From a virus (taxonomy: Duplodnaviria; Heunggongvirae; Uroviricota; Caudoviricetes): a stretch of 64,000 bases of DNA. This document shows, piece by piece, positions 21,991 through 62,827 of this stretch. The position numbers and the translations under genes were made by a program. Each line of letters starts with the position of its first letter. The first letter of the stretch is position 1. Location of the stretch: IMG/VR virus record IMGVR_UViG_2718218135_000001, positions 49,251 through 113,250 of that record; one strand, given 5' to 3'. The notes below the pieces were generated by a model. That model was not told where the DNA came from. It did no database searches and was given only the letters and a program-made list of their open reading frames with translations.

Positions 21991-22017
21991 TATATAGTAG
22001 GTAAGTACATACCTACT
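21991..22017. promoter_or_regulatory. conserved intergenic motif A copy (TATATAGTAGGTAAGTACATACCTACT)
   Basis: AGTAGGTA / TACCTACT 8-bp inverted arms; upstream of lysis cassette. Confidence 0.5.
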
Positions 22018-23108: not shown

Positions 23109-23110
23109 GT

Positions 23111-23362
23111 ATGTTCGACGGCCTGTTGTTCAAAATGAAATCCGCTTTGTTCACTCTGGCCGCCGTCATTCTAGTCCTTGTCGGCGCATACTCCTATGGC
23201 GGGTATATGGCCAGACGCAGTATGGAAGAGAAAGAACGGCGGGAAGATAACAAGCGTCTTCAAAGCACAGTGGAAGTGGTGAATGAGACGAACAGTGAAA
23301 TACGTCAGAAAGATGCTTCTGCCATTCATCGTGAGCTGCATGATAAGTGGGTGCGTAATTAA
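23111..23362 (+). CDS. i-spanin (Rz-like)
   Basis: N-terminal TM helix then charged coiled-coil region; lipoprotein ORF embedded in +1 frame. Confidence 0.5.
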   Translation: MFDGLLFKMKSALFTLAAVILVLVGAYSYGGYMARRSMEEKERREDNKRLQSTVEVVNETNSEIRQKDASAIHRELHDKWVRN

Positions 23363-23498
23363 GCCACAGACCACCAGCGTGTTGTTCTGCGATGGCGCTG
23401 AACCTATTTATATCAGCAATGACGATGTAATGACCGAAGAAACCGAACGCCAAATCCTTTTTCACAATACGATGGGAGAGAGAGTTTGCGGTTGGTGA
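23283..23498 (+). CDS. o-spanin (Rz1-like outer-membrane lipoprotein)
   Basis: Lipobox ISGC in signal peptide; starts inside i-spanin gene in alternate frame (true start may be the internal Met at 23313). Confidence 0.5.
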   Translation: MRRTVKYVRKMLLPFIVSCMISGCVIKPQTTSVLFCDGAEPIYISNDDVMTEETERQILFHNTMGERVCGW

Positions 23499-23530
23499 TG
23501 TCGAAGTTCCCCTCAAATGAGGGGGACACA

Positions 23531-24052
23531 TTATTCTTCGAACAATTTTTCGATAGATTTTGTTGGATAGAACAAAGAACGATCGTTGTTACCAACCAGC
23601 TGGATAAAGCCCAAACTTTTATAAAACGCCCTAGCTTTATCGTTCAACGCCTCAACGAAAAGCCCATGAATGCCTACCGCAAGAGATGCATTGTACACAA
23701 CACGCATTGCGTGAGTTACAAGCATTGAGCCAAACCCCTGACCTTGAAGAGATTTGTCCAAAGCCAGTCTGCCTAAAGTGATACTTGGGACATTCCGATA
23801 AGGCACTTTCTTTTGCTGACTCTTTGAAGGTAAGGTTTCTTTCTCAAAGCAGCTGCCTGACAAAGTGTAATAACCTAATACCTTTGGTATTTCTTCTTTA
23901 GTGCAAAGCACATAAGCGCGAAGAATTTTTCCTTCATGCTGTCTTTTTAAGTGGTTGGTCAAAAATGCGTTTAGTGACTCTTCGCCGCAATCAAAACCGT
24001 TTAGATCATAATCTTTCTCTCCAGAGAAAATCTCGATCGTCGTATTGCTCAC
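23531..24052 (-). CDS. GNAT-family acetyltransferase toxin (TacT/ItaT-like)
   Basis: GNAT motifs (QGQGFGSMLV); GTG start 7 nt after upstream DUF1778-type ORF with GGAG RBS. Confidence 0.65.
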   Translation of the reverse strand: MSNTTIEIFSGEKDYDLNGFDCGEESLNAFLTNHLKRQHEGKILRAYVLCTKEEIPKVLGYYTLSGSCFEKETLPSKSQQKKVPYRNVPSITLGRLALDKSLQGQGFGSMLVTHAMRVVYNASLAVGIHGLFVEALNDKARAFYKSLGFIQLVGNNDRSLFYPTKSIEKLFEE

Positions 24053-24059
24053 GAGTAAA

Positions 24060-24329
24060 TTACTCCATGCTTTTCAGACGATTGGCAGCTCGTTTCAGCT
24101 TGTCGTTCGGTGCCGGAGGATTGCTTATAGCATCCATAACCAGATTCCAGGACTCTTCACTTAGAACCAGTCTACGGTGTTGCTCTATCACCTTCACGGC
24201 ACGTTCGGATGCACTGCTAACCATGAACTGGGTAATGCTCTGGTTAGACATTGCGGCAGCTTCCTCGATGATGCTTTTATCGTCATCGGTTAATCTCAAA
24301 TCGATGCGCTGCTTTTTCAGTGCGGACAT
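24060..24329 (-). CDS. DUF1778-type (RHH) antitoxin
   Basis: 89-aa protein MSALKKQRIDLRLTDDDKSIIEEAA... typical of GNAT-toxin partners; upstream of and co-directional with toxin. Confidence 0.65.
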   Translation of the reverse strand: MSALKKQRIDLRLTDDDKSIIEEAAAMSNQSITQFMVSSASERAVKVIEQHRRLVLSEESWNLVMDAISNPPAPNDKLKRAANRLKSME

Positions 24330-24340
24330 GTGTACCCCCT

Positions 24341-24367
24341 GATGGCCGGTGATGTAGGAAGGCCATC
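24341..24367. promoter_or_regulatory. palindrome in toxin-antitoxin promoter region (candidate operator)
   Basis: GATGGCC-N13-GGCCATC inverted repeat 12-38 bp upstream of antitoxin start. Confidence 0.4.
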
Positions 24368-24598
24368 ATTGCTCTCTATTTAAACTGAGTTTTCGACTCA
24401 AAGGTTATTTAACTGGGCTATAGCCCATTGCGTATGTGTCATCAAATTGTGTACGGCAATTTACCGTACTCGTAATATAGAGGTGATTGTCACTTTTTTC
24501 AACAGACAAATGAAAACAGTTACTAGCAATAGGCAATAACAACCTACTAAATAACCTTTACACCGCAGCCGTAGGCATTTAGGCTATATCGCATATAA

Positions 24599-24614
24599 GA
24601 AAACAAGTTGTTTC
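24599..24614. promoter_or_regulatory. conserved intergenic motif B copy (GAAAACAAGTTGTTTC)
   Basis: Palindromic AAACAA-N-TTGTTT element about 35 bp upstream of parA-like start. Confidence 0.5.
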
Positions 24615-24648
24615 ATACGACAATAATTCACGCAAAGGAAACTCACCA

Positions 24649-25314
24649 ATGACCAAGATCATTGTGGTTGGCGGCACAAAAGGCGGCCCAGGCAAATCTA
24701 CCGTTGCCCAGCAAATTGCGGTATGTCTCAAAGTTAAAAAGAAAAAGAAGGTTCACGTCACCGATATCGATATCCAGCGCACCACGACCAGCTGGTGTGA
24801 AGACCGTCGCCAGAACGAAGATCTTGAACTGATCCCGTTCGCTTATGTGCAGGACGACATCGTCAAACATCTTAAATCGCTTCAGGGGCGAACTGATTAT
24901 GTAGTGGTAGATGCTGGTGGCTTTGACTCCGAAATTCAGCGTCTGGCGATGCTTATGGCTGATGTAATCATCATCCCGCTGCGCCCTAAACGTCGTGATT
25001 TGAAATCTCTGCGTGATATCGACCCGATTATCGACAACGTTCGCAATGTGAACGAGAAAGTTAAGATCCGCGCGGTAATAAACCAGTGTCCGTCATTGCC
25101 TTCCCAGGTATCACGTATTCTGGCCGCGAAGGAAATTGTCGAAACTTTCGGCATCGAGGCTGCGCCGGTCAATCTGTACAACCGTAACGTTTATGACGAT
25201 GCGGAAGAGGCAGGTCGTTCTATCTTTGAAATGACTGGCGCTGAACGCGATAAGAAGGCAGAAGCCGAGTTCGAAGAGTTTGTAGATTACATCTTGAGTC
25301 TGGAGGAAGAATAA
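24649..25314 (+). CDS. ParA/ParF-type partition ATPase
   Basis: Deviant Walker A GGTKGGPGKST at N-terminus; 221 aa; followed by small basic protein. Confidence 0.7.
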   Translation: MTKIIVVGGTKGGPGKSTVAQQIAVCLKVKKKKKVHVTDIDIQRTTTSWCEDRRQNEDLELIPFAYVQDDIVKHLKSLQGRTDYVVVDAGGFDSEIQRLAMLMADVIIIPLRPKRRDLKSLRDIDPIIDNVRNVNEKVKIRAVINQCPSLPSQVSRILAAKEIVETFGIEAAPVNLYNRNVYDDAEEAGRSIFEMTGAERDKKAEAEFEEFVDYILSLEEE

Positions 25315-25673
25315 TGTCCATGAGAATGGGAGACCTTGCAAAGCGCAATGAGCCTAAAGAACCGGCCAAAAGCAGCACTCCACTGCGCCAGCCAGTCAGA
25401 CCGCAGGGGCGTCCGACTCGTGGCAAAGAGAAAATTAAAAGTCGCACAATGTCACTGGAGGACGAATACTTCGAACTGCTGGAAATGATGAAGTTCATCC
25501 CTCGTTTCGAGAAGTTCACCCGTTCTGACGTGATTCGCGCCGCCATTTTCCATCTGGCAGAGAAGTCACCGCAGGAAATCGAGGACATCGTGAAACTTAA
25601 CGAGGCGATCACAGCTGCCGATGTCACGATGCGTACCGATGAAATCAAACGAGAGTTGATGAAGAAAGGTTAA
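25314..25673 (+). CDS. putative partition centromere-binding protein (ParG/ParB-like partner)
   Basis: Small basic ORF translationally coupled to ParA-type gene (GGAGG RBS, ATG overlaps stop). Confidence 0.4.
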   Translation: MSMRMGDLAKRNEPKEPAKSSTPLRQPVRPQGRPTRGKEKIKSRTMSLEDEYFELLEMMKFIPRFEKFTRSDVIRAAIFHLAEKSPQEIEDIVKLNEAITAADVTMRTDEIKRELMKKG

Positions 25674-25678
25674 AAATT

Positions 25679-25709
25679 ATGCATTGGCGCAATGTACGCG
25701 CCAATGCAT
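25679..25709. terminator. hairpin between convergent genes (terminator or centromere-like palindrome)
   Basis: ATGCATTGGCGC-AATGTAC-GCGCCAATGCAT perfect 12-bp inverted repeat, A-run on + side. Confidence 0.4.
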
Positions 25710-25725
25710 AAGTACAGTGTCAGCT

Positions 25726-26493
25726 TTATGCCGCGCTAACACTATGTTCATTCCTAACCACCCCAACCTTCACAAAAGGGCTGCCGTAGCTTGGTGGCTT
25801 CTTGATTAATTTGCCTACATACAGTTTTCTAATATGCTCATCGGCTATTCTGCCAACAAATTCATAACGTTTTGTGTCGGGGCCAAGAGCTATATCCCTT
25901 GTAAAGTACTGCTGAGAACCGGCTTTGACCCAGCATTCAATCTGATAAACTTCCATTATCAGGCCCCCATATGTAGCGTAGGCATATTTGAGATTCTCGT
26001 CTCTTGGAACCTTTGCCCATACGCCACGCGTAGCTTCATATAATGCCAGAGCGGACATTCCTGACTTGTAGGTGCTGTTTAGCAGGAAGGCAAGACCGGC
26101 GTGCTCAGGAGCAATTTCAGTTTCCTCTTGCAGCACTAAGTGATGGTAGGCGTCCAGTGATATTCTGCCCATCATGGAACCACTTCCTCGTACCTTATTC
26201 GTAAGCTCTCCGACACCCATAAGGTCGATGCATGTCGCCTCAACAAGTTTGGCTGTGGTTTCATCCATACCATGACGAAGAATATCTATGCCTAATTTTT
26301 TATTAGCCAAAAGTTCTTTGATCCGCATGGATTTGGGAGAGTCATCGGGATACTTGATGTGATCGAGACAACGAGTCGATTTGCCTTTTCCTATGTAAAA
26401 CGGTCTTTTCATCTTGTCTTCTGTATCATAGAGACAGTAAACATAGTATTTAGCCTTATCCAATGATCTCGCGTATACCGATAAATCGTCCAT
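25726..26493 (-). CDS. GIY-YIG domain protein (free-standing nuclease candidate)
   Basis: N-terminal YYVYCLYDTEDKMKRPFYIGKGKSTR resembles GIY-YIG motif; about 150-aa C-terminal domain of unknown type. Confidence 0.45.
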   Translation of the reverse strand: MDDLSVYARSLDKAKYYVYCLYDTEDKMKRPFYIGKGKSTRCLDHIKYPDDSPKSMRIKELLANKKLGIDILRHGMDETTAKLVEATCIDLMGVGELTNKVRGSGSMMGRISLDAYHHLVLQEETEIAPEHAGLAFLLNSTYKSGMSALALYEATRGVWAKVPRDENLKYAYATYGGLIMEVYQIECWVKAGSQQYFTRDIALGPDTKRYEFVGRIADEHIRKLYVGKLIKKPPSYGSPFVKVGVVRNEHSVSAA

Positions 26494-26620
26494 TATTGCA
26501 TCTCTTAGCTACTGACTAATGCGTTCTATTTTACACATAAGTTTTTAATCAATTTTACAGGCTCAAAGTGTAGAGCTTCTGGGTGTCTAAGACGACAAGT
26601 TATGCCTGTTTCTGTATATA

Positions 26621-26648
26621 AATAATAAGTAACTTATTAAATATATAC
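26621..26648. promoter_or_regulatory. conserved intergenic motif A-like palindrome (AATAAGTAACTTATT)
   Basis: AATAAGT-A-ACTTATT perfect inverted repeat in divergent promoter region. Confidence 0.4.
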
Positions 26649-26740
26649 GGAAGCAGGTCTTTTAAAAGACACCCACCAGAACAACTCCCTTCCGTTTCCA
26701 CTTCCCAAAAATATCTCCAGTCGCTATGATTCGCTCACTT

Positions 26741-26763
26741 AGATAAGTAAGTACATACCTATT
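26741..26763. promoter_or_regulatory. conserved intergenic motif A copy (AGATAAGTAAGTACATACCTATT)
   Basis: Matches TAAGTAAGTACATACCTA consensus; upstream of 26776 gene. Confidence 0.5.
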
Positions 26764-26775
26764 AAAGGGAATCAT

Positions 26776-27501
26776 GTGAGCCAGATCTTCTTCAACACTA
26801 TCGACAATGACCAGTACGATTTCATGACAGAGTGGAATACCGCTGTTATGGACAAGTGGGTCGCTGAAAACATTGGTTTGTCGCGCTGTAAAGACGAGGC
26901 TGAACTCTTCGAGACGAAGTGGTTTGATTACCGCGACATGCACCCACTTATGGCCACATGCCTTTTCACTGAGGCATACAAGCGCCAGTACTCATACATC
27001 ATGCTGTCGCATGGTCGTGAACACTATGAGACGGCTCCATTCACAACCGGTCTGAAGCGTGTGCCATATCAGGAGTTGTCGACGGTCAACAAAACGTCGC
27101 TCTGGAAAGCACGCCAGTTTGCTGACCGCTATTGCTGCTCATACGACTACTTTATCTCCACCGTTCTTTCCGCAGCTGCACGACGGCTGTGGGACAAATT
27201 ACCGCGCCCCCAGCATCTCTGGCAGCCCGAGTTGATCGAGATATTCGAAGAGAAGTTAGCCAAACGCGCTGTAACCCGTCTGGATGACTCTCTGGTGAGT
27301 TTTAAGCATCTTGGAGACATGCAGCGTGACCCGATTCAGGAACGCTATTTTGAGTGGATTCTGGAGCGTCTGCGTGGCATTACCCGAGATAAACGCATCC
27401 GTATCATCTTCTCCGCTGTCTGGTTGATGGAAATCGTGCCTGAGCGTGTGATTTACGCGCACTTCCCGGAAGAACTGGAAGAAGCACGGCGATTCTGTTG
27501 A
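26776..27501 (+). CDS. hypothetical protein (replication-region, function unknown)
   Basis: 241-aa ORF, GTG start with AAAGGGA RBS; upstream of helicase. Confidence 0.4.
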   Translation: MSQIFFNTIDNDQYDFMTEWNTAVMDKWVAENIGLSRCKDEAELFETKWFDYRDMHPLMATCLFTEAYKRQYSYIMLSHGREHYETAPFTTGLKRVPYQELSTVNKTSLWKARQFADRYCCSYDYFISTVLSAAARRLWDKLPRPQHLWQPELIEIFEEKLAKRAVTRLDDSLVSFKHLGDMQRDPIQERYFEWILERLRGITRDKRIRIIFSAVWLMEIVPERVIYAHFPEELEEARRFC

Positions 27502-27527
27502 TCCCCTATCTGGCTTTTTTAGTATTA

Positions 27528-27542
27528 GAAAACAAATTGTTT
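27528..27542. promoter_or_regulatory. conserved intergenic motif B copy (GAAAACAAATTGTTT)
   Basis: Identical core to copy at 45164; about 20 bp upstream of helicase start. Confidence 0.5.
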
Positions 27543-27561
27543 AAGCACCAAAGGAAAGCAC

Positions 27562-37687: not shown

Positions 37688-38500
37688 ATGAAAGAAGAAT
37701 TTCAGAAGTTAGTCTGCGACATCATCGACAAATCCGGCGTAGAAATTGATACAGAAGAGCGCCAGAAGATTATCGACGAGGCGATCCAAACTGCGCTGGA
37801 GCATATCGCCACGTCCGTGAGCGCCGCACCTCTTTCGGAAGGCTCGAAATACATGCAGGTCTGGGTTCGTTTTGGAGAGTCCCCGGAGTTGCCAGGTGTT
37901 AAGCAGAAACGCGCGGCACTTGTGGCGTTCTCTCGCGAGATGAAAGACGCAACGGTCGAAGTGAGTACCGGTGCATGGTACGACGGTCGCATTGTCTACA
38001 CTAATCAGACTGTCTACACCAATCAGACTGTGTGCGATGAAGGTGAACGGTTTGAGGATATTGTCGACGCAACTCTTCGCACGCTCAAAGTCAGAGCTGG
38101 TGTGGCGGATGACCCGTCCATCGCGGCGTTCCTGAGTATTGTCGAACAGTCTGAAGTTACCGAGCGCGTAACAGATCTGACAACTCCACCTGGTTTGCTG
38201 GAATTGGTGGTCAGTGGCGATATCAAAAAAGCCGTTGAGCGCATTCGTGAGGTGGAATACGGCATTATCTGCGATATGTGCCGCAGCGACTTAGACCTGG
38301 TGCGCATCATTGTCGACGCGGGTCAGGCATGTGACGGAGTACTCGCCAGTTTTGCAGGGCAAGTGGCTCGTCTGGCCAACGAATTACCCATGATTAAACA
38401 AGAAGCCAAATCCTACGCCGTTCATCGTACCAACGATTTACTGGACCCATACCGGTTCGAAGCTGCTCAGGACAAAATGACTGGCTGGGCGACCTGGTAA
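37688..38500 (+). CDS. hypothetical protein
   Basis: 270-aa acidic ORF with AGGAG RBS; contains 18-bp tandem duplication (VYTNQT x2). Confidence 0.4.
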   Translation: MKEEFQKLVCDIIDKSGVEIDTEERQKIIDEAIQTALEHIATSVSAAPLSEGSKYMQVWVRFGESPELPGVKQKRAALVAFSREMKDATVEVSTGAWYDGRIVYTNQTVYTNQTVCDEGERFEDIVDATLRTLKVRAGVADDPSIAAFLSIVEQSEVTERVTDLTTPPGLLELVVSGDIKKAVERIREVEYGIICDMCRSDLDLVRIIVDAGQACDGVLASFAGQVARLANELPMIKQEAKSYAVHRTNDLLDPYRFEAAQDKMTGWATW

Positions 38501-38517
38501 GCCTCGATAAAACATTT

Positions 38518-38539
38518 AGCCCCCTCGTGGGGCTTCTTT
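38518..38539 (+). terminator. terminator-like hairpin
   Basis: AGCCCC-TCGT-GGGGCT followed by TCTTT. Confidence 0.5.
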
Positions 38540-38550
38540 AAACTGCGATT

Positions 38551-38570
38551 AATAAGTAAGTACAAGATTA
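38551..38570. promoter_or_regulatory. conserved intergenic motif A copy (AATAAGTAAGTACAAGATTA)
   Basis: TAAGTAAGTA core; between terminator and next start. Confidence 0.45.
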
Positions 38571-38581
38571 CGGTTAGAAGC

Positions 38582-39058
38582 ATGTCCACAAGAACAGATT
38601 TGTCGAAAATCCCGTCTATCTCCGGAAACAACGGTTATTCGCTGCGCTGCCCGGAAGTGAAGCTCAACGGCCATGAGGCTCATTGCAGCTATACAGTCTG
38701 CCAACACACGATCCTCGCCTATAAAGAAAAACGTCTCCCGGCTACATCGTTCCAGTCCTGCGCTGCGGCTATTGCTGCTGGTAAATGTCAGGCACTGAAA
38801 ATGATGGTCGAAGAGATCCGCAAAGACGAACAGCTCTACTTCATCGATATGTCTTCACTTATCAAAGAAGTGGAAGAGCAAAACGACCATGCCAGAACGC
38901 TCCCCCGGAAGCGAAACACCGCGACAATTGACAGTCTTATTCATCGCACGAAGAAAACAGAACCTGCTAAATCCGAAACCAAGCCCACCGATTCACTGGC
39001 GCCGGTCACTGACGTGTACGCGGCACTCATTGAAGAAGCAACCAAAGAAAACACATGA
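38582..39058 (+). CDS. hypothetical Cys-rich protein
   Basis: 158-aa ORF; several Cys/His (CPEVKLNGHEAHCSYTVCQH). Confidence 0.35.
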   Translation: MSTRTDLSKIPSISGNNGYSLRCPEVKLNGHEAHCSYTVCQHTILAYKEKRLPATSFQSCAAAIAAGKCQALKMMVEEIRKDEQLYFIDMSSLIKEVEEQNDHARTLPRKRNTATIDSLIHRTKKTEPAKSETKPTDSLAPVTDVYAALIEEATKENT

Positions 39059-39092
39059 AAACTCCCGAGCGACCGATGGAGGTTAAACACTA

Positions 39093-40415
39093 ATGGAAAA
39101 ACTGATCGCCCTAAAGCACAAGCTGGATGCTATTAAAACGATGGGAACCAACGCCAAGAAAGAGGCGCTGGCCAATCTGGATGAATTTGAACAGAGCATG
39201 GTCTCGCTAATGCTCAATCCATTCATTCGATTCGGTGTGAAGAAGTACAAAGTGGCCGAGCCACTCGATACTTCCGTACCCAGCGACCAGAAGGTAGTAG
39301 ATCTGCTGGAGAAGCTGGCAGCGCGCGAACTGACCGGGAACATCGCTATTGCTGCTGTCGAATCACTCGTTGCCTCGATGTGCGCTGACGGGCAGGACGT
39401 GTTTCGTCGCTTCCTGCTGAAAGATCCGAAAGCCGGTGTCGGCATCAGCCTGTGCAACAAGGTGTTCGAAAACCCAATTCCGAAGTTTGAGGTACAGCTG
39501 GCGTCTCCGTACAAGGAGAAAGGCGACAAATACCCATTTAAACCAAATCCAAAGGCCAAGTGGCCAATGATCGGCAGTCTCAAACTCGATGGTCTCCGGG
39601 TTATCTGCGAAGTCATCGTGGACGAGGGTGAGGTCAATTTCCTGACGCGCACCGGCAATCCGATTACGTCACTCGATCACCTTAAACCAGCCATGCTGGA
39701 GCGGAGCAGACTCTCCGGCTTCAATCACATCTTCTTCGATGGAGAGGGCACTGCAGGTACATTCAACCAGTCAGTGTCGGCGCTTCGTAAGAAGAACGTG
39801 AAAGCCATTGGTGCCGTTTACCACATTTTCGATTTCTTCTTACCGGAGTGGCGTGCTCAAGCAAAAAGCAAAGAGTACCTGAAGACCGGTATGAAGCTGA
39901 AAGAGCGCCTGGCTATGCTGGTGGCGTTGTTCCGCAACACTTGCGTGGAAGATTATGCGCAAGATATCCACCTTCATCCGTTCTACATCATCCATAGCCA
40001 CGAAGATTTCATCGAACGTTTCATGAAGCGACTGGACGAGAATGAAGAGGGAGAGATGGGCAAAGATCCGGATTCAGTTTACGAGTTCAAACGTACCCGC
40101 AGCTGGTGGAAGCTGAAAGACGAGGATTCAGAAGACGGTGAAATCATCGACTTCGAGCCTGGCGATCCGGATTCTGGATTTGCGCATACGCTAGGCAAGA
40201 TAGTGATTCGTCTGGAGAACGGCGTCATCGTTCGTGCCAGCGGTATCAAGCATAAATACCTGGATGAAATCTGGAACAATCAGGAGAAGTATCGTGGACG
40301 CATCGTTGAGGTTCACTGCCATGAGAAAACGCCAGATGGTAGCTTGCGTCATCCACGTCTGAAGTGGCCTAAATGTCTTCGAGATACCGAAGATCGTATT
40401 GGAGATAAAGAATGA
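39093..40415 (+). CDS. ATP-dependent DNA ligase
   Basis: Motif I KLDGLR, motif III FFDGE, motif V-like WWKLK; GGAGG RBS. Confidence 0.65.
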   Translation: MEKLIALKHKLDAIKTMGTNAKKEALANLDEFEQSMVSLMLNPFIRFGVKKYKVAEPLDTSVPSDQKVVDLLEKLAARELTGNIAIAAVESLVASMCADGQDVFRRFLLKDPKAGVGISLCNKVFENPIPKFEVQLASPYKEKGDKYPFKPNPKAKWPMIGSLKLDGLRVICEVIVDEGEVNFLTRTGNPITSLDHLKPAMLERSRLSGFNHIFFDGEGTAGTFNQSVSALRKKNVKAIGAVYHIFDFFLPEWRAQAKSKEYLKTGMKLKERLAMLVALFRNTCVEDYAQDIHLHPFYIIHSHEDFIERFMKRLDENEEGEMGKDPDSVYEFKRTRSWWKLKDEDSEDGEIIDFEPGDPDSGFAHTLGKIVIRLENGVIVRASGIKHKYLDEIWNNQEKYRGRIVEVHCHEKTPDGSLRHPRLKWPKCLRDTEDRIGDKE

Positions 40416-40591
40416 TGCTCGGCTGGATGTTTGTATTTTTAGTCGTCGGCATTGTTATCGGAAGTCTGGTTATGTCCAGCTGTATCCACGATTACGTAAA
40501 AGCCGGTGTCATGCAAAGGCGAGGTCGTATTTATCGCATAGTAGATATCACGGACACACTGAAGGAGATTAAGGATGAGCATGTTAAGTAA
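40412..40591 (+). CDS. small membrane protein (59 aa)
   Basis: ATG overlaps ligase stop; one TM helix; C-terminal RIYRIV motif shared with ORF at 40787. Confidence 0.25.
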   Translation: MMLGWMFVFLVVGIVIGSLVMSSCIHDYVKAGVMQRRGRIYRIVDITDTLKEIKDEHVK

Positions 40592-40787
40592 ACGAGAGAA
40601 GGAAACCCTGCGTGAAATCAGCAAGTGGAAGGAGTTCTACGCCAACTGGAAGCCGAAGACCAGAGCCAAACTGGAGCGCATGAATCTTGTCGCCAACGTT
40701 TCTCCAAAGGGATGTATTGAGAACTATCAACTGACTGAAAAAGGTTATTTGTTGTTGCAGCAATTGACTGAGGCGGGGGCATACTGA
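40575..40787 (+). CDS. small hypothetical protein (70 aa)
   Basis: GAAGGAG RBS; overlapping small-gene array. Confidence 0.3.
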   Translation: MSMLSKREKETLREISKWKEFYANWKPKTRAKLERMNLVANVSPKGCIENYQLTEKGYLLLQQLTEAGAY

Positions 40788-40939
40788 TGATTCCATACAT
40801 CATTTTATCATTCACTGGTGGCGTGGGCCTCGGCCTCGCAATCTGCCGCGCCCTGGTCCAGCAGGAACTGAAAACCAAAACACTTCGTGTCGGTAAGCGT
40901 GTGTATCGGGTTGTTCACGAGACGGGAGTGCGAAAATGA
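40787..40939 (+). CDS. small membrane protein (50 aa), paralog-like of 40412 ORF
   Basis: Starts ATGATTCCATAC; TM helix then RVYRVV motif; stop overlaps next start. Confidence 0.2.
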   Translation: MIPYIILSFTGGVGLGLAICRALVQQELKTKTLRVGKRVYRVVHETGVRK

Positions 40940-41241
40940 GCAATTTGACTTCCTTCGACTGGTGGCTGGCAACCTACCTTGTTGCGGCCGGCTTCGGATT
41001 TGCCTTTTACGTTGGTCAGTTAATCGTAAAGCTACTGCTGATAAGATTCGCCAGCGATAAACGCATAGACGACGGTCTGTGGCGTCTGGGGCCCCTGTTA
41101 GAGACGCATTACGGCGAACTCAAGGAAAACGAAACTATCACTATTCAAGCGAAGCGTTTTACCGCCATCATCACGAGAACTTCGGAACAAAAGGGGAGCC
41201 TGATCAAAAAGATAGCAACTAAACGCATCACAGATAGATAA
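40936..41241 (+). CDS. small membrane protein (101 aa)
   Basis: N-terminal TM helix (WWLATYLVAAGFGFAFYVGQLIV). Confidence 0.35.
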   Translation: MSNLTSFDWWLATYLVAAGFGFAFYVGQLIVKLLLIRFASDKRIDDGLWRLGPLLETHYGELKENETITIQAKRFTAIITRTSEQKGSLIKKIATKRITDR

Positions 41242-41258
41242 GTATTTACTTACCTATC
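41233..41258. promoter_or_regulatory. conserved intergenic motif A copy, extended palindrome (GATAGATAAGTATTTACTTACCTATC)
   Basis: 12-bp inverted arms with one mismatch; at the edge of the non-coding tRNA region. Confidence 0.5.
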
Positions 41259-41984
41259 TAATATGTATAAGATCACTTTGTTTTCGTTGAGATGCGACTG
41301 TTTGAACGTTAAATATAACTGCAAACGAAGATGCATACCTGGCAGTAGCCTAAGAAGCCAAACACCAGCGAGGTCAGTTTCCAGCCTCGTCACCAAAATG
41401 GGACACACTGAGCGAGTGTGATTGCAGAACGCAGAATAGGGCATATTGCACCATCCATGCCCTATTCAATGAAGTAACAGAATGGGCGGTTGGTTTCATC
41501 ATTCCATTCACCCATCCCGGTTTCAGCTGACCGTCCATTCTGTTACGTCATTTCCATTACTTATGTCGTTTATACTTGGGTTAAAAGCGGCGACGTAACC
41601 CGGCTGACTTGGTTAGTCAGCACATAACGTTGAGATCACTGATTTTTCTTAAAATCATACAGGCGATTCCACATAGCTGTAGCGACTGATCAATATGTTG
41701 GGTTGAACATTAATCGGTTCAGTGATCTCAACGTTGTGAAAGCAGGATTAATTAACCCTCTAGTGAAAACATTGTTGCCTTTATTGCCCCTGGCTTCACA
41801 ACATGTATGATTCCATACATCTAATAAGATCGAAGAATCTAACGGCAATCAACCACCGAGAAAGATTCCAGATCTTCGCTCATATGAGCGAGCCACATAC
41901 CTTGTCTGGCACTAACGTAAAGTGCAAGTTGCGGGAAAGTTTCTGGCTGCCTGGTTGTCCATAAGCTAGTACCGCCGCGAATAT

Positions 41985-42059
41985 GATGGTGTAGCTCAGT
42001 GGTAGAGCGGTTGACTGTTAATCAACTGGTCGGTGGTTCGAGTCCACCCACCATCGCCA
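41985..42059 (+). tRNA. tRNA-Asn (anticodon GTT)
   Basis: Cloverleaf by hand: acceptor GATGGTG/CACCATC, D-arm GCTC..GAGC, anticodon stem GTTGA/TCAAC with loop CTGTTAA, T-arm GGTGG-TTCGAGT-CCACC, discriminator G, CCA encoded; differs from E. coli tRNA-Asn as I recall it. Confidence 0.75.
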
Positions 42060-42213
42060 ACATAGCGCTGAACGGTTTGGATTCGCCACCACCGTCCGAA
42101 CGAAAGACTCCGCAAATGTCGCCAGACCGTTCAGCGCTGTGATAGACACGGCAGACGTTTTTTAACCATTGCTTCTAAGCATCGTAGCAACACTTTTTTC
42201 AGCGCAAAATCCA

Positions 42214-42235
42214 AAGGGGCTTCGGCCCCTTTTTG
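42214..42235 (+). terminator. rho-independent terminator
   Basis: AGGGGC-TTCG-GCCCCT followed by TTTTT. Confidence 0.6.
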
Positions 42236-42313
42236 CTATCAAGTCGCATATGCAACCAACTTTTTTTAGCTTATAGTTAAGTTCAGTAGTAGAATGCTAC
42301 GCTTCGTCGAGAA

Positions 42314-42829
42314 ATGACGATTATGGAGTCTATCGTGAAATTTAAAATCCAGCATTTGCAGGCAGCAGTGGCACTGGTTCTTGCCAGTATCCAGCCGCAA
42401 CCCAAAGCGGTTGCGTGTCAGCCTACGATTGTAGAACGGGTTTATGAGATGGGCGCTAGAGTCAACAAAACCGACATCAGTGATCTTACAGCTGCTCTCA
42501 ATGAATTGGCTAAAGAACTGCGTTCAAGCCGCGCTGAACTTGCTCGTTATGCTGACACTGACTTCTTTGCTGCTATCAAAGTAGCGGAAGAAATTAAGAA
42601 TCAAACTATTCATGTAGCCGGTATCGCAGAATCTTTTGTTTTGATGTTACCTGAAAAAGACGTCATCATGTCTTACGACAAAAACACTGTTGAGTTTGCG
42701 TTTTTTAAAGCTATTAAAATGGTCAGTATTGCGACCAAAAACTATCTCAATCTGATTGATCAGATTACACACACTTCTGTAGTGCGTGACTCTGGTGTCA
42801 ACCTTTTAGCCATGAACCATTCTAGCTGA
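42314..42829 (+). CDS. hypothetical protein
   Basis: 171-aa ORF after terminator; TAGAAT -10-like element upstream. Confidence 0.4.
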   Translation: MTIMESIVKFKIQHLQAAVALVLASIQPQPKAVACQPTIVERVYEMGARVNKTDISDLTAALNELAKELRSSRAELARYADTDFFAAIKVAEEIKNQTIHVAGIAESFVLMLPEKDVIMSYDKNTVEFAFFKAIKMVSIATKNYLNLIDQITHTSVVRDSGVNLLAMNHSS

Positions 42830-42997
42830 ACTTTAGCGATCGTCATCTTCTTCATCATTCTTTTTCTTCTAACAAATCATTCTCATCAATCTGGCTCAGA
42901 TGGCATTCCAAAGTTGGCGTTATTAGGCGCTTTTTACTATTTAGCGTTTAAGATGGTTTGTCTACATAATTTATTCAGAATTTACGTAAGCTATATA

Positions 42998-43030
42998 AAT
43001 GATTCCATACTTGTAAGGTATGGAATCATT
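42998..43030. repeat. perfect 13-bp inverted repeat (AATGATTCCATAC-N7-GTATGGAATCATT)
   Basis: Exact palindrome about 100 bp upstream of recombinase gene; ATGATTCCATAC core also at 40787 and 41807. Confidence 0.6.
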
Positions 43031-43128
43031 TTCAAAAACAGTCTATTTTACTGTTGATCATACAAAACTTAGGCCTAACATACTGTTTATAAATACAGTA
43101 AAAACAGGCTTCACTCAGTGAGTGGACT

Positions 43129-44232
43129 ATGAAAAACACTTTTGATAAAGCACGCGCAGCAGAAAACACCTCTAGAGAAGCCATCGAGTATCTCGAACGC
43201 GCTTCCGGTTTGTCAGCAGTGTCGACCACCAATTTCGACGGTGACATGTCGTTTTCTTCCGCATTCATGTTATTCACTCGCTTATCTTTGCTGATAACGA
43301 GACGTCGACCTGAAATAGCTGTTCATTGTATTTTGATACATGTAATGCCGCATATCTGTGAAGTAAAAGTAAGTGACATTAGTAGGGTTTTAGTCAACCA
43401 GCTGGTGAACCCATTAATACTTGAGGGCAAGATCGTCCAGGGCAGACGTGTGTTCTCGCTGATGAAGCAGTTTCTCAGTTGGTGTGCATTTCAGGGCTTA
43501 ATTGATACATCCCCATTGAACGATATGTCGCTTAACAGAGTAGCCGGTGGCGCGAAGCCCACGCCGCGCGAGCGCAAACTGACCGACGCAGAGGTCTGGG
43601 TCTTTTGGAATGTATGGGACTACTTCAACGTATGTGAGGGTACAAAGTGGGCGGCCAGATTATGCCTTGTAGCGGCCAGACGACCAGATGAAGTGCTCCG
43701 AGCTAAAAGATCAGAATTCAACCTCGAATATAATTTATGGAATCAAGGAACGAGGAATAAATCGGCTCGCCAGCACTCGTTACCATTAAGCCCGCTAATG
43801 CGCAAATGTGTTGAGGAGCTGATCAAATACGGAAAAGGCAGCCAGTGGCTTGTTCCTTCAAACAAGAAACAGGGTGAGGATGTGCCAATGTCTAAGGTGG
43901 CCATATCACAGGCGTTGAGAAGGATTTTAGAACGTCCAGAGTTGATGGAGCTTGAGCCATTTACTCCCCGAGATTTGCGTCGTACTGCGCGTAGTTACTT
44001 CCCCGCGTTAGGCATAAGTCAGGAGGTATCCCGCAAAATTATGAACCACAGTCTTGAGGGGATAGATCGAGTATACGATCGACACGATTATATAGACGAG
44101 ATGCGAGACGCCTTAAACAGTTTTTCGGCGTACATCGCATCAATCGTAGAGAAACAGGATTTAGAGGAGATAGATCATAAGTTCAAGGGAGATCGACTCG
44201 CTACTGAGCTAATCCGTGTAAATTTCTCATAG
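43129..44232 (+). CDS. tyrosine recombinase / integrase
   Basis: C-terminal catalytic region RDLRRTARSYF ... MNHSLEGIDRVYDRHDY (R..H..R..Y pattern). Confidence 0.65.
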   Translation: MKNTFDKARAAENTSREAIEYLERASGLSAVSTTNFDGDMSFSSAFMLFTRLSLLITRRRPEIAVHCILIHVMPHICEVKVSDISRVLVNQLVNPLILEGKIVQGRRVFSLMKQFLSWCAFQGLIDTSPLNDMSLNRVAGGAKPTPRERKLTDAEVWVFWNVWDYFNVCEGTKWAARLCLVAARRPDEVLRAKRSEFNLEYNLWNQGTRNKSARQHSLPLSPLMRKCVEELIKYGKGSQWLVPSNKKQGEDVPMSKVAISQALRRILERPELMELEPFTPRDLRRTARSYFPALGISQEVSRKIMNHSLEGIDRVYDRHDYIDEMRDALNSFSAYIASIVEKQDLEEIDHKFKGDRLATELIRVNFS

Positions 44233-44616
44233 CGACTTGATTGCCTCAACAACCCGCTCCGACGCACCACGTTGGTCACCGAAACGTCGACGGAAGGCTT
44301 CCAGAACTAGTTTTTCATCTTTAGTCAGAGGGGCTGTGCCTTCGTCGCGAAAAAACTCTAACAGCTCTGGATGACGCTCTTCCAGCACCATTAGCATCAA
44401 TCGGACCGAATCGGCATCCAATGCTTTAGCCAACGCTCTGACCTTGTCGATCGGAAGCGGGATTTTGCCGCTCTTGATAAGTGAAAGATTGTTAGGATTT
44501 TTATAGCCTGCTTCTTTCGCGATGGTCGCCTGGCTTTTCGGAGAAATCGCGATTAAAGCGTCAATGTAAGCAGCGTAGCGACCTACTTTAGCTTCTGTTA
44601 TTTCGTTGGTAGCCAT
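44227..44616 (-). CDS. HTH transcriptional regulator (candidate repressor)
   Basis: HTH-like QATIAKEAGYKNPNNLSLIKSGKIP; divergent from 45198 operon with motif B in the shared region. Confidence 0.45.
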   Translation of the reverse strand: MATNEITEAKVGRYAAYIDALIAISPKSQATIAKEAGYKNPNNLSLIKSGKIPLPIDKVRALAKALDADSVRLMLMVLEERHPELLEFFRDEGTAPLTKDEKLVLEAFRRRFGDQRGASERVVEAIKSL

Positions 44617-44872
44617 AATTATCAACCTGCGTGTTTTGATTTTATATGGTAAGTGCTTACTGATATTACATCAAAGGTTAGTGTTGTAAAGACTTATCTA
44701 TTTTTTTTCGTAGAGTTATTGACCGCAAAAGGCTTCATTAATAGACAACTATCTAAAAAACAACTCATTTAAGAACTTAAAACTAAGTTGTATTTGATAT
44801 ATAAGTATTCCGTATTGATACAATAGGTAGTAGTATTGCAAGGCATTTACGTGTTCAGTTGGATGATATGAA

Positions 44873-45085
44873 ATGAAAAAAATAACTTCTAATTTGATCG
44901 CCCTTGAGGTCGGACATACGGTTTCAATTGACGATGATGGGGCAGCAGCCATACTCACTGAACTGCCAACAAAGTCTTTGTTACTTGACATGAAAGACGC
45001 AACCGCATACATCTTTGAGCTAAAGGGCAAGTGCTTCACTCTCATCAATACCGGCTGCGGTTCAGTAGCCGTCCGCACTATTTAA
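44873..45085 (+). CDS. small hypothetical protein
   Basis: 70-aa ORF in AT-rich divergent region. Confidence 0.2.
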   Translation: MKKITSNLIALEVGHTVSIDDDGAAAILTELPTKSLLLDMKDATAYIFELKGKCFTLINTGCGSVAVRTI

Positions 45086-45163
45086 CACACCCCTCCCATC
45101 CTCTCTAGCGCCTGTACGAACAGATTAGATGCCTGTTCGTACAGTGATAAATTACGCACATCA

Positions 45164-45179
45164 GAAAACAAATTGTTTT
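45164..45179. promoter_or_regulatory. conserved intergenic motif B copy (GAAAACAAATTGTTTT)
   Basis: Palindrome 19 bp upstream of VWA gene ATG at 45198. Confidence 0.5.
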
Positions 45180-45197
45180 AACAACAAGGAAATTCTA

Positions 45198-47426
45198 ATG
45201 TCCAAAAAAACCACCAAAGCTGTACTGAAAGAGGTGCAGGATTTTCGCGACTGTGTAAAACGAGTTGTAGCGATGCTTTCAGGTAAACAGATACCTGTTG
45301 CAGAACGAGGCAATGAAGCATATGTCCGCTATAACCGGCGCGGCGAACCAGTGCTGGTAAACATCCCATCTATACCGGACGACGCGTCGCCAACCCTCAT
45401 GAACGCAGTGCGTGGTTTTCTCGACCATGAGGTGGCCCATATTCTCTTTACTGAACCGAAAGTCGCAATGCAGATGCGCGAAAGAGGAAAGGCTCCGTCT
45501 ACGGGGCTTTGGAATGCGCTGGAAGACGTTTTTATTGAACGCAGAATGGGGCAGGTCTTTAACGGAACCCGGCGTAATTTACTTGCAACACAGAGTCTGG
45601 TTATCGACAAATACTTCAGGAATAAAGTACCAGAAGCGGTTTTAGCCTGTCACGGAGACCAGCGTGAATTGTTTTTGAAATTCTTCCTTTGCCCGGTCGT
45701 CCGCGCCTGGGATGGACAAAGCCCCTTCATCGATTTTATGGAAGAACACTGGCGCCTTATCGAGAGGCCGGTAGCCTTACTAAAGGAGCATGGTATAGAC
45801 GTGGCCGTTCGCAATATGTCGAACACTGAGGATTGCGTGAAGGTCGCTGCTGCTATAGCCCAAATCATGCAGGATATGAAAGACAAGCCAGAGGGCAAAT
45901 TACCAGAACTTAAATCATCTGCCAGAAAGCCGTCGGAGAGCAAAGACGAGTCCGAGGAAACGCCAGAATCAGGTGACGAGCCGTCTCATGGTGACTCTGC
46001 ATCTAAGCCTGCCAAAGGCGAAGGCGATGACAAGGAAGAACGAGAAGATGATGCATCAGAAGAGGAAGATTCTGGGGATTCCGATTTGCCTGATTCGTTA
46101 GATAAGGACTTACCTACACACGTTAAAGATATTAGTGATACAGAAAGTAAATATACAGAAGCAGGCCACGAAGAGTCAGGAGACACCCCAGAATCCGATG
46201 CTATCGGCATGAAATCAAGTGACTCTGACACTGATGGTGATGACGGTGAGGACTCCGATACTGATCGTGGGGAAACTGAAGAAGACGTCGAAGGCAAAAA
46301 AAATAAAGATGGTGCGGAAGTGCCCAAAGACAGTGAGTCTGGCTTTGTTCCTGCGCCGGATGAAATGACTCTGGAGGAGGCGCTAAAGGCGCTCGACGAG
46401 ATGGAAGACGGAATCGGTGAAATGACCGAAGACGCACTGTCGGCCACCATCAGCAAAGAGCTTATGAGCGTCTCACCTTCTGATTATCGGCCATACGATC
46501 GATCATACGACTTTATCGGGTTGATTGATGGAGCCGAAGAGCATGTGAAGCGCACCAGAAAGACGTTCGGTGCAATACCAATGCACTCACCAGTCGACCG
46601 CTACCGTATGGTGCCAGAAGGCAGAAAACTCTTTGAACTGAAAATCGAAAAACATCTGTCTGCAGGCGTTTCTTCGACGCTGGCCAAAGACCTGGAGCGG
46701 GCCATCGCCAGCCGCAACCGAGTTCAGTTTATACCTGGTCAGAGGCGTGGGCGGATACATGGCGCGAGCCTGTATCGTCTGGCAATGAACGACGACCGAG
46801 TGTTCCGCAAGAAGGAAGACCATAGAGCGGTGAACGCGTGTGTCCAGCAGGTCATCGACTTGTCCGGCTCAATGGATGGCGTGAAGATTCAACTGGCCCT
46901 AGCCAGTGCCTATACCATTGCGGATGCTTTAGATCGTATCAATGTCCCCAACATCATCACCGGCTTTACCACGTTCGGTAGCCCAGATTATGAAACCAGG
47001 TCGAAGCGCGGGTTTACACGCTTCGAGGCGCTCATGCTGCCCATTATCAAAAACTGGAATGAGAAAGCAAACTCTCCAGAGATCCGTGCTCGCATGGGAT
47101 GCGTATGTGAGACGTTCCCACTGCTCAATAACGTCGATGGTGAGAGTGTCGCGCAACTGGCTACCCTGTTTGCAGGGCGAATGGAGGACAAAAAGATCAT
47201 GCTGGTTATGAGTGATGGGGAGCCATGTGCTACAGGTAGTGGATTCCATCAGCATTTACGAACCGTCACCAAAGAAATTGAGACCTTGAGCGACATCGAA
47301 CTGATGGCTATCGGCATTCTGACCGACGAACCACGGCGTTACTACAAAAATTACGCACTGGTTAACAGTGTTGAAGAGCTAGGGCCGTCAGTCGTCACTG
47401 AGTTATCTCGTATCATTCTTGGGTAA
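45198..47426 (+). CDS. VWA-domain protein (CobT-like) with long acidic tract
   Basis: MIDAS motif DLSGSMDG; Asp/Glu/Ser-rich region about 45950-46400; ATG at 45198 preferred. Confidence 0.55.
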   Translation: MSKKTTKAVLKEVQDFRDCVKRVVAMLSGKQIPVAERGNEAYVRYNRRGEPVLVNIPSIPDDASPTLMNAVRGFLDHEVAHILFTEPKVAMQMRERGKAPSTGLWNALEDVFIERRMGQVFNGTRRNLLATQSLVIDKYFRNKVPEAVLACHGDQRELFLKFFLCPVVRAWDGQSPFIDFMEEHWRLIERPVALLKEHGIDVAVRNMSNTEDCVKVAAAIAQIMQDMKDKPEGKLPELKSSARKPSESKDESEETPESGDEPSHGDSASKPAKGEGDDKEEREDDASEEEDSGDSDLPDSLDKDLPTHVKDISDTESKYTEAGHEESGDTPESDAIGMKSSDSDTDGDDGEDSDTDRGETEEDVEGKKNKDGAEVPKDSESGFVPAPDEMTLEEALKALDEMEDGIGEMTEDALSATISKELMSVSPSDYRPYDRSYDFIGLIDGAEEHVKRTRKTFGAIPMHSPVDRYRMVPEGRKLFELKIEKHLSAGVSSTLAKDLERAIASRNRVQFIPGQRRGRIHGASLYRLAMNDDRVFRKKEDHRAVNACVQQVIDLSGSMDGVKIQLALASAYTIADALDRINVPNIITGFTTFGSPDYETRSKRGFTRFEALMLPIIKNWNEKANSPEIRARMGCVCETFPLLNNVDGESVAQLATLFAGRMEDKKIMLVMSDGEPCATGSGFHQHLRTVTKEIETLSDIELMAIGILTDEPRRYYKNYALVNSVEELGPSVVTELSRIILG

Positions 47427-47442: not shown

Positions 47443-47465
47443 AATAAGTAACTACTTACTATACA
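47443..47465. promoter_or_regulatory. conserved intergenic motif A copy (AAAATAAGTAACTACTTACTATA)
   Basis: AAGTA / TACTT arms; about 55 bp upstream of AAA+ gene. Confidence 0.5.
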
Positions 47466-61474: not shown

Positions 61475-61480
61475 GTCGTT

Positions 61481-62818: not shown

Positions 62819-62827
62819 GACGCGAGT

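Follow-up and report, generated by a model that had tools for sequence, protein, structure and literature searches.

The locus

The window, a 64,000-nucleotide stretch of DNA, belongs to an SSU5/pHCM2-like phage-plasmid. It carries three copies of a short palindrome, referred to as motif B, in front of genes for plasmid partition, a replicative helicase, and a CobT/VWA protein. The features of interest are:

24557–24585, + strand: putative parA promoter (TTTACA, 17 nt, TAGGCT), read from the sequence; it ends 13 nt before motif B
24599–24615, + strand: motif B site 1, GAAAACAAGTTGTTTCA, exact match; putative operator of the parA promoter at ~+7 to +21
24649–25314, + strand: parA, small ParA/MipZ-type ATPase of 221 aa (Pfam AAA_31, MipZ, CbiA, ParA)
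25314–25673, + strand: ParA partner of 119 aa with an RHH-like sequence pattern (phrog_5111); rival binder candidate
27528–27544, + strand: motif B site 2, GAAAACAAATTGTTTAA, 5′ of the helicase gene and 2 nt past the −10-like hexamer TAGTAT
27562–28902, + strand: DnaB-like replicative helicase (Pfam DnaB_C; SSU5_039 annotation)
42102–45068: 3-kb segment with a 171-aa ORF, an integrase (43129–44232), the HTH gene, and a small gene (44873–45085); missing from SSU5
44227–44616, − strand: XRE-type HTH protein of 129 aa, ortholog of Cyrano CYRAN_45, a 'putative repressor'
44649–44690, − strand: promoter of the HTH gene (TTTACA, 16 nt, TAATAT; scanner match), with the motif A core GTAAGCACTTAC at the predicted transcription start position
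45164–45180, + strand: motif B site 3, GAAAACAAATTGTTTTA, 5′ of the CobT/VWA, AAA, and dnaE genes
45198–47426, + strand: CobT/VWA protein gene (Pfam CobT_C, 1e-108)
47522–48757, + strand: AAA_5 (MoxR/CobS-like) ATPase gene (Pfam AAA_5)

Motif B in the window

Three near-identical palindromes had been placed by the initial annotation at 24599, 27528, and 45164, and their sequences are exactly as described. The 15-mer GAAAACAAGTTGTTT lies at 24599–24613 and GAAAACAAATTGTTT at both 27528–27542 and 45164–45178, all on the + strand, with the 13-bp core AAACAANTTGTTT starting at 24601, 27530, and 45166. These three exact core matches compare with 0.00 expected from 100 dinucleotide-preserving shuffles, while the 15-mer with up to two mismatches gives four matches vs. 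0.46 expected. Their proximity to the parA, helicase, and VWA starts also holds, with 35 nt between the end of the motif and the start codon for parA (ATG at 24649) and 19 nt for both the helicase (ATG at 27562) and CobT/VWA. For the latter the true ATG is at 45198 and the mechanically called ORF start at 45129 is wrong. Looser matches at 58716, within a coding region, and at 44758, with two mismatches, are not credible sites. A related half-site claimed at 28946 was left out of the site count because it mismatches at 4 of 15 positions and is not kept in SSU5, Cyrano, or the Klebsiella relative.

Motif B has a symmetric palindromic core of 6+1+6 bp. Its arms, at positions ±1 to ±6, mirror each other and are 88–100% conserved over 66 unique sites, while the centre base is unconstrained (G in 22, A in 17, C in 14, and T in 13). 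Such dyad symmetry, with constrained arms about a free centre, is what is expected of a palindromic operator bound by a dimeric repressor. The flanks are asymmetric and oriented with transcription, reading aAGA on the 5′ side and Aa on the 3′ side. A contiguous core of this kind is unusual for XRE dimers.

Distribution and conservation across the family

A genome-wide scan places the three window copies in a set of 16–20 sites per genome that is shared by six enterobacterial relatives, the most distant at ~40% protein identity. The original description of a palindrome common to replication and maintenance operons was therefore an understatement, as the motif marks a regulon of ~20 sites conserved across the SSU5/pHCM2 family. 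SSU5 has 20 sites, the window together with the rest of pCUVET18-789.1 has 18, and Cyrano, pJN2-26, and Cronobacter JZ38 have 16–18, giving 89 over these five genomes. Nearly all sites in related genomes have a start codon no more than 130 nt downstream. Both the excess over chance and this intergenic, promoter-proximal placement are expected of a repressor operator.

The individual sites are retained at orthologous positions. Site 1 is kept in SSU5, Cyrano, Klebsiella pJN2-26, and Cronobacter JZ38, and the parA promoter/operator segment is present in 634 PLSDB plasmids. Site 2 is kept in five genomes with A, T, C, or G at its centre and diverged flanks, and site 3 in five genomes and in pMT1. 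When the regions upstream of parA, the helicase gene, and the VWA gene are aligned across the five genomes, motif B is the best-conserved block and its centre base varies, and between the three sites the flanks are unrelated and the motif alone is shared. Conservation at orthologous positions amid diverging flanks, again expected of a repressor operator, extends to LR890700, a distant Klebsiella plasmid in which the core is unchanged, and to pMT1 of Y. pestis. The latter has six intact sites, including those at the VWA gene and terS, and has lost parA and its partner. Motif B is absent from the Acinetobacter relative.

Position on putative promoters and expression in the lysogen

Motif B occupies two positions relative to putative promoters, covering either ~+6 to +22, where it follows a −10-like hexamer by 11 nt, or the −35 region. 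Hexamers resembling a −10 element peak 11–12 nt upstream of the motif (28 of 66 sites), with two or fewer at most other offsets. In approximately 20 cases the motif is inverted and overlaps the −35 region, with a proximal copy 51 bp away. In LR890700 most copies of the core lie 5′ of the −10 and would not be transcribed together with the downstream gene. Early-region sites resemble one another over a whole ~60-bp cassette comprising the −35, the −10, aacACCAAcAAGA, and the motif. Because the −35 elements are weak, a scanner for generic sigma-70 promoters finds none at the three window sites and none in the early region of SSU5. Promoter placement therefore rests on alignment statistics. The putative parA promoter at 24557–24585 likewise scored below the threshold of this scanner, and its hexamers and spacing are invariant across five genomes. 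The transcription start sites at all motif-bearing promoters are predictions from sequence.

RNA-seq of the Cyrano lysogen gives values of 21 for the helicase, 7.8 for VWA, 7.1 for terS, and 7.5 for CYRAN_101, against a background of 9.8 (PMC9928086 S1). The genes downstream of motif B thus appear silent in the lysogen, which is read here as repression. In the same dataset parA reaches 50, five times background, despite its perfect motif B site (PMC9928086 S1).

A putative repressor operator

The symmetry of the motif, its predicted promoter positions, the lack of an RNA-fold signal, and the silent downstream genes together argue for a DNA operator of a dimeric repressor. It is likely that GAAAACAA-N-TTGTTT serves as such an operator in a genome-spanning repressor regulon of SSU5/pHCM2-type enterobacterial phage-plasmids. 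The earlier proposal of a dimeric-repressor dyad is thus well supported by the ~20-site regulon, the predicted placement on promoter cores, and the lysogen data.

In this model the reader would be symmetric and most probably dimeric, recognising both 6-bp arms and ignoring the centre base. Its sites would lie on promoter cores, just past the start site and 11 nt after a GATAAT/TATTAT-like −10 or overlapping the −35, with some promoters carrying both, 51 bp apart. A bound repressor would block RNA polymerase at the helicase, CobT/VWA-AAA-dnaE, and nrdB promoters, and likewise at the terminase operon, ant, and ~12 small early genes, while parA would be throttled by the same operator. The phage would then be silent during plasmid maintenance because its replication and early promoters are blocked and parA is held down.

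The HTH protein as candidate binder

The initial annotation named the divergently encoded HTH protein as an obvious candidate binder. This lysogen-expressed XRE-type protein is the best candidate for binding motif B, an assignment made only tentatively. Its Pfam matches (HTH_3/HTH_31) are below the cut-off, and it also matches phrog_8. An AlphaFold2 model (pLDDT 80–89 over residues 11–80) matches the HTH domains of C.AhdI, C.BclI, 434 repressor, SinR, and Stl. The model is a five-helix XRE fold, superimposing on the 434 repressor domain with an rmsd of 1.9 Å over 62 residues and on C.AhdI with a TM score of 0.8, and so has the XRE/Cro-CI fold expected of a lambda/434-type repressor. The gene has 96 reads in the Cyrano lysogen, ten times background (PMC9928086 S1). 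Homologs occur in ~1000 plasmids and adjoin an integrase in the listed records with annotation.

Comparative data also bear on this assignment. The HTH gene is absent from SSU5, which retains all its motif B sites and is described as virulent (PMC5427195). The whole 3-kb segment at 42102–45068 is missing there, as seen from a blastn synteny break and a tblastn E-value of 1.2. All motif-bearing lineages share the recognition helix NxNxLSxIKxGK, which differs in the motif-less Acinetobacter relative, and pMT1 retains the HTH gene alongside its six intact sites. The control region of the HTH gene (44617–44872) has no good copy of motif B, the best being the two-mismatch match at 44758. Instead, the predicted transcription start position of its promoter carries a different palindrome, motif A (GTAAGCACTTAC), which has perfect copies in the window, Cyrano, and pJN2-26.

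The case for the HTH protein is therefore mixed. Its fold, lysogen expression, absence from SSU5, and conserved helix stand in its favour; the other palindrome at its own promoter and rivals sharing the phyletic pattern of the motif count against it.

Comparison with known systems

The C1 repressor of P1 acts alone on many dispersed promoters, including those of ban, which encodes a DnaB-like helicase, ant, and replication genes, and some of its operators are paired. The SSU5/pHCM2 family resembles P1 in that the phage lives as a plasmid, with scattered putative operators at helicase, ant, and replication genes. The two differ in that the operators of P1 are 17 bp long and asymmetric (ATTGCTCTAATAAATTT), motif B being a symmetric 6+1+6 in the 66 unique sites. 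The candidate binders here are small (88–174 aa).

KorA and KorB of RK2 and omega of pSM19035 bind short palindromic operators repeated at replication, partition, and other promoters of one replicon. One of their positions overlaps the promoter core, as is predicted for motif B, and the repetition of a palindrome and a par operon among the putative targets are shared. In contrast to the present family, where a partition-protein binder is a minority hypothesis at odds with pMT1, KorB and omega are themselves partition proteins, and their operator sequences are unrelated to motif B.

The CI repressors of lambda, 434, and P22 share with this system an XRE-fold candidate, a 13–17 bp palindrome with an odd centre, and a gene divergent from a small gene beside an integrase. 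The putative operators here are instead spread over ~20 promoters, and at 44617–44872 there is none of the clustering between repressor and divergent lytic gene that lambda and 434 show. The 129-aa HTH protein has no Peptidase_S24 match, and so lacks the C-terminal autopeptidase domain on which RecA-mediated induction of lambda/434 CI depends, and its own promoter bears a different palindrome.

Possible alternative readers of motif B

Three other proteins, namely the 119-aa ParA partner, an 88-aa winged-helix-like protein, and a FljA-like regulator, fit the phyletic distribution of the motif at least as well as the HTH protein does. It is unlikely that the operator is read by the second of these, by some further protein of the phage, or by a regulator of the host. 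The 88-aa protein, of the SSU5_130 family, is encoded outside the window just 5′ of two tandem terS sites. It is the best-conserved small DNA-binding candidate, with 72% identity in LR890700 (others 23–43%) and 100% in pMT1, is absent from the Acinetobacter relative, and has a weak LexA_DNA_bind-like match. Its mRNA is nonetheless at 7.8 vs. a background of 9.8 in the Cyrano lysogen (PMC9928086 S1), an unexpected level for a repressor of the maintenance state. As for other factors, the motif B 13-mers were not found in the literature searched. To our knowledge, no host regulator has the motif B consensus.

Quite unlikely is a model in which the 119-aa ParA partner is both partition adaptor and global repressor, like omega or KorB, coupling plasmid segregation to the silencing of lytic genes. 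The par operon's own promoter has a perfect motif B site, no other repeat or centromere-like array is found in 23000–31500, and the partner is at nine times background in the Cyrano lysogen (PMC9928086 S1). The protein is present in every motif-bearing genome and absent from the Acinetobacter relative. It has an invariant segment, SRTMSxEDE...FTRSDVIRAAI, and the strand that may read DNA, SRTxSLExEY, is retained where identity falls to 33%. An uninterrupted palindrome whose inner positions are conserved may also suit a ribbon-helix-helix reader. Yet the partner was lost with parA from pMT1, where the six sites remain intact. Furthermore, its RHH fold is unconfirmed, with an AlphaFold2 pLDDT of 65, no PDB fold matches, and no Pfam family match.

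A wider form of this idea, also improbable, is that the ParA partner segregates the plasmid prophage and silences ~20 lytic and replication promoters, or that a milder two-palindrome code operates. In the milder version motif B may mark early promoters, while a co-evolving motif A of the GTAAGnnCTTAC type may mark others, among them late promoters and that of the repressor gene itself. Were the ParA partner the reader, the lytic programme would be set off directly by falling amounts of partition protein or a falling plasmid copy number.

Motif B could alternatively act in RNA, as a 5′ UTR target through which a FljA-like protein (Pfam Flag1_repress) would block translation of and destabilise ~20 mRNAs. 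The parallel with FljA control of Salmonella fliC mRNA is that the family encodes a full-length FljA homolog, present in every enteric relative (E 6e-69), and that most sites fall within 5′ leaders in sense orientation, after the −10 and ahead of the neighbouring ribosome-binding site. The Salmonella fliC leader contains CAAGTTGT, with the same central 8-mer, but the E. coli fliC leader is without the motif. In LR890700 the FljA homolog is only 23–35% identical though the core is unchanged. Moreover, ~20 sites and most of those in LR890700 lie 5′ of the −10 and would not be part of the downstream gene's mRNA, predicted folds of six 5′ UTRs are no more stable than those of shuffled sequences (z from −1.2 to +1.05), and 0 of 42 two-mismatch sites have compensatory changes. 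On these grounds a FljA-type translational operator is very improbable and is rejected as the main mechanism. Least probable of all is that no regulator exists and the motif is a passive piece of a duplicated promoter cassette or initial transcribed sequence shared by common descent, which would explain the alike ~60-bp early cassettes but not the unrelated flanks of the parA, helicase, and VWA sites, the invariant arms about a free centre, or the use of one core at two promoter positions.

Implications

Clinical Klebsiella, E. coli, Salmonella, and Enterobacter commonly harbour SSU5/pHCM2-type phage-plasmids, which also carry resistance genes. The literature searched contains nothing on how these elements decide between lysis and persistence as a plasmid. 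With ~20 mapped operator sites and four candidate binders, this plasmid/lysis switch becomes directly testable. Motif B additionally provides a sequence signature specific to the family and, if the repressor-operator model holds, would define a set of repressible promoters.

The element and its relatives

Klebsiella phage-plasmids and the phages SSU5 (Salmonella) and Cyrano (Escherichia) share 80–93% identity with positions 24000-32000 and 40000-64000 of the window. The best complete match is pCUVET18-789.1 (NZ_CP115313), an E. coli plasmid of 113.7 kb at 99% identity; the window corresponds to about 64 kb of this record, on its minus strand. Judged by these matches, the element is a phage-plasmid of the SSU5/pHCM2 type. 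Its structural genes fall within the window, together with the par and replication region and a portion of the recombination region; the early region (about 80-95 kb in SSU5 coordinates) lies outside.

A phd-doc toxin-antitoxin module follows the primase gene (about 30227-30943); it is about 91% identical to the P1/P7 version and is absent at the corresponding place in SSU5. The 779-aa ORF at 55984-58323 is the counterpart of a recombinase of about 358 aa in SSU5 and pMT1 and is annotated as a LAGLIDADG homing endonuclease in the near-identical plasmid. As in Cyrano, it probably represents a RecA-like gene with an intein; a type I restriction-modification system follows at 59006-64000.

A dispersed palindrome shared across the family

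Motif B is a dispersed palindrome with a 6+1+6 core. The three 15-mers of the initial annotation were found exactly where it placed them; the window has three copies of the 13-bp core AAACAANTTGTTT, vs. zero in 100 shuffles.

Motif B copies in the window, with distance to the start codon and promoter elements read from the sequence
24599, parA: 35 nt to start; putative promoter TTTACA, 17 nt, TAGGCT, ending 13 nt before the motif
27528, helicase: 19 nt to start; putative -10 TAGTAT, 2 nt before the motif
45164, CobT/VWA gene: 19 nt to start (start at 45198); putative -10 GATAAA, 12 nt before the motif

The related half-site proposed at 28946 did not hold up, having 4 mismatches in 15 and no conservation in relatives. 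The stretch 28946-28975, in which it is followed by CTTTTGCC, similar to the tgCCTTTTG block in the -35 region of early promoter cassettes, may be what is left of an operator and promoter in front of the primase gene. Another loose match, at 58716, falls within a gene and was rejected as a site. A search near par for half-site clustering or a centromere array found neither.

Scanning beyond the window revealed that these copies are the tip of a larger regulon than first reported. SSU5 carries 20 sites (≤1 mismatch to the core), pCUVET18-789.1 about 15 further sites outside the window, Cyrano 18, Klebsiella pJN2-26 17, and a Cronobacter plasmid 16. The distant Klebsiella plasmid LR890700, whose proteins are only 23–72% identical, has about 20 sites with an unchanged core, and Y. 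pestis pMT1 keeps six. No motif B site was found in the distant Acinetobacter relative; a motif-like sequence upstream of its par genes was judged to be chance, as the par partner there is an unrelated protein with repeats of its own. By itself, the promoter/operator segment of parA occurs in 634 PLSDB plasmids.

The genes downstream of sites include those for replication and maintenance (parA, helicase, CobT/VWA-AAA-dnaE, nrdB), two methyltransferase genes, ant, and about a dozen small early genes. The small terminase gene (terS) is preceded by two copies, 25 bp apart. Another pair with 25 bp spacing, at SSU5 90740-90790, has orthologous pairs in all relatives and sits in a conserved region of roughly 500 bp with no ORF start nearby, possibly an origin or the regulated promoter of a non-coding RNA. 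Upstream of ant, a copy at SSU5 80779 is followed by a terminator-like hairpin, an arrangement that recalls P1 immI.

Site anatomy and promoter position

Across 66 unique sites, the arms (positions ±1 to ±6) mirror each other and are 88–100% conserved, the centre base is random, and the flanks are asymmetric (5' aAGA, 3' Aa). No compensatory pairs were present in two-mismatch variants (0/42), and six 5' leaders folded no better than shuffled sequence. Hence selection acts on the sequence of both arms and not on base pairing.

A -10-like hexamer (GATAAT or TATTAT, often after TGn) lies 11–12 nt upstream in 28/66 sites, with most other offsets at ≤2. This spacing would put the proximal palindrome roughly between +6 and +22. 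A second set of about 20 sites is reverse-oriented, with the pattern TTGTTTTC-tgccttttgttatttgaGATAAT, and overlaps the -35 region, several of its members lying exactly 51 bp from a proximal copy. In LR890700 sites of this upstream type are in the majority, with the proximal copy degenerated to ACCAACAAGAAC. A generic promoter scanner gave no support for promoters at motif sites, and their placement was based on offset statistics. The promoters at the three window sites look weaker, and we infer their placement, since the scanner called none there; it is supported by conservation.

A further inverted repeat, CTGTACGAACAG-N9-CTGTTCGTACAG (45112-45144), is located over the -35 region at VWA. Cyrano and pJN2-26 carry CTGCGCGAA..TTCGCGCAG in its place and Cronobacter a further variant, so that the sequence varies between genomes with the dyad retained.

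Motif B as a probable DNA operator

The operator interpretation of the initial annotation is supported. Motif B is symmetric with a free centre, and one core occupies two classical repressor positions, one of them untranscribed; it is therefore quite likely to be a DNA operator for a symmetric protein. In the transcriptome of the LF82/Cyrano lysogen (PMC9928086), motif-bearing genes are reported at background. These values are compatible with repression in the plasmid state, without proving that the motif is responsible. The par operon would be throttled in this state, not shut off.

Expression in the LF82/Cyrano lysogen (normalised reads; median background 9.8; PMC9928086, S1 table)
helicase: 21
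VWA: 7.8
terS: 7.1
CYRAN_58: 5.7
CYRAN_101: 7.5
CYRAN_106: 12
CYRAN_110: 6.7
parA: 50
parA partner: 89

Candidate binding proteins

Candidate binders of motif B
44227-44616 (-): 129-aa XRE-type protein (HTH)
25314-25673: 119-aa RHH-like ParA partner
next to terS: 88-aa winged-helix-like protein (SSU5_130 family)
pCUVET18-789.1 83443-83967 and SSU5 96897-97418: FljA homolog (Pfam PF03614)

The HTH protein, put forward as the binder by the initial annotation, is a plausible but unproven candidate, with a chance approaching even. Its fold, lysogen expression, and absence from SSU5 speak for it. The modelled N-terminal domain is of XRE/434 type (TM 0.7–0.8 to C.AhdI and C.BclI; rmsd 1.9 Å to the 434 repressor domain), and the protein is the ortholog of the Cyrano 'putative repressor', expressed at 10x background in the lysogen (PMC9928086). 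The pattern NxNxLSxIKxGK of its recognition helix is retained from the window as far as LR890700 (overall identity 40%); the helix of the Acinetobacter relative, where motif B is absent, is different. A PDB sequence search with the protein gave no useful match.

The gene lies in a 3-kb segment (42102-45068; integrase, HTH, and a small gene) missing from SSU5, which nevertheless keeps all its motif B sites. The absence does not count as a refutation, because the HTH is a core family gene, with homologs in about 1000 plasmid records and an adjoining integrase in the listed records that carry annotation, and because SSU5, described as virulent (PMC5427195), is a deletion variant. Retained sites with a lost HTH segment would be the pattern expected of a repressor-deletion mutant, and loss of the module may be the reason SSU5 is lytic.

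Against this assignment, the HTH control region contains no good motif B copy; its promoter (TTTACA, 16 nt, TAATAT) is followed by a different palindrome, GTAAGCACTTAC. A contiguous 6+1+6 core is also unusual for an XRE-type fold. Furthermore, every motif-bearing genome encodes the ParA partner, the 88-aa protein, and the FljA homolog, and the Acinetobacter relative encodes none of them, a shared distribution that would count against HTH. Covariation in the enteric genomes is uninformative because the core of the motif is conserved and so are the DNA-reading segments of three candidates; only the Acinetobacter relative and pMT1 discriminate, weakly.

That the binder is instead the 88-aa protein, another phage protein, or a host factor is, taken together, a realistic though lesser possibility; the 88-aa protein gene is not expressed in the Cyrano lysogen (PMC9928086). 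The ParA partner is an unlikely binder, being missing from pMT1 where the sites are intact; its model has low confidence (pLDDT 65), and a Foldseek search of the PDB yielded nothing meaningful. Least likely, and improbable on either DNA or RNA, is the FljA-like protein, which matches Pfam Flag1_repress. An RNA operator would suit the location of most sites in 5' leaders, but was rejected as the main model given untranscribed sites, unstable hairpins, and no covariation. Moreover, the motif is absent from the E. coli fliC leader and the Salmonella leader has only CAAGTTGT in common with it. This full-length homolog of the flagellin phase-1 repressor (PF03614, E 6e-69) is encoded outside the window; its sequence looks like two Hfq/Sm-like repeats, and a PDB sequence search found no useful match.

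Motif A, a second dispersed palindrome

Motif A, with the core GTAAGnnCTTAC (extended, about AAAATAGGTAAGTACTTACCTATCATTTT), occurs in 12–21 copies in each enteric genome. Many genes, structural ones among them, have a copy immediately before them, and another sits at the promoter of the HTH gene itself.

Motif A copies in the window
22001-22012
26747-26758
44649-44660
46102-46113
47448-47459

Its arms vary in a compensatory manner between lineages (TAGGTA..TACCTA), with TAGGTAG..CTACCTA in Cronobacter and TATGTA-N2-6-TACATA in LR890700. About 28 copies of TAGTAAGCGCTTACTA are present in the Acinetobacter relative, which also has a gene for a sigma-70-family protein. Motif A may represent a hairpin element or a promoter specific to the phage.

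Comparison with known systems

The proposed logic, one repressor acting on many dispersed operators including replication and partition promoters, is common to the P1 C1 network and to the KorA/KorB and omega plasmid regulons. However, the motif B system belongs to none of these families, as its operator is symmetric unlike that of P1, and the operator sequences and candidate proteins differ. It also lacks two defining features of a lambda-type switch, operators clustered at the repressor gene and an S24 domain. In the searchable literature, the coverage of which is incomplete, no paper with the 13-mers or on SSU5 operators was found, nor any description of motif B. The motif B regulon makes lysis-lysogeny control testable in a clinically widespread family of phage-plasmids.
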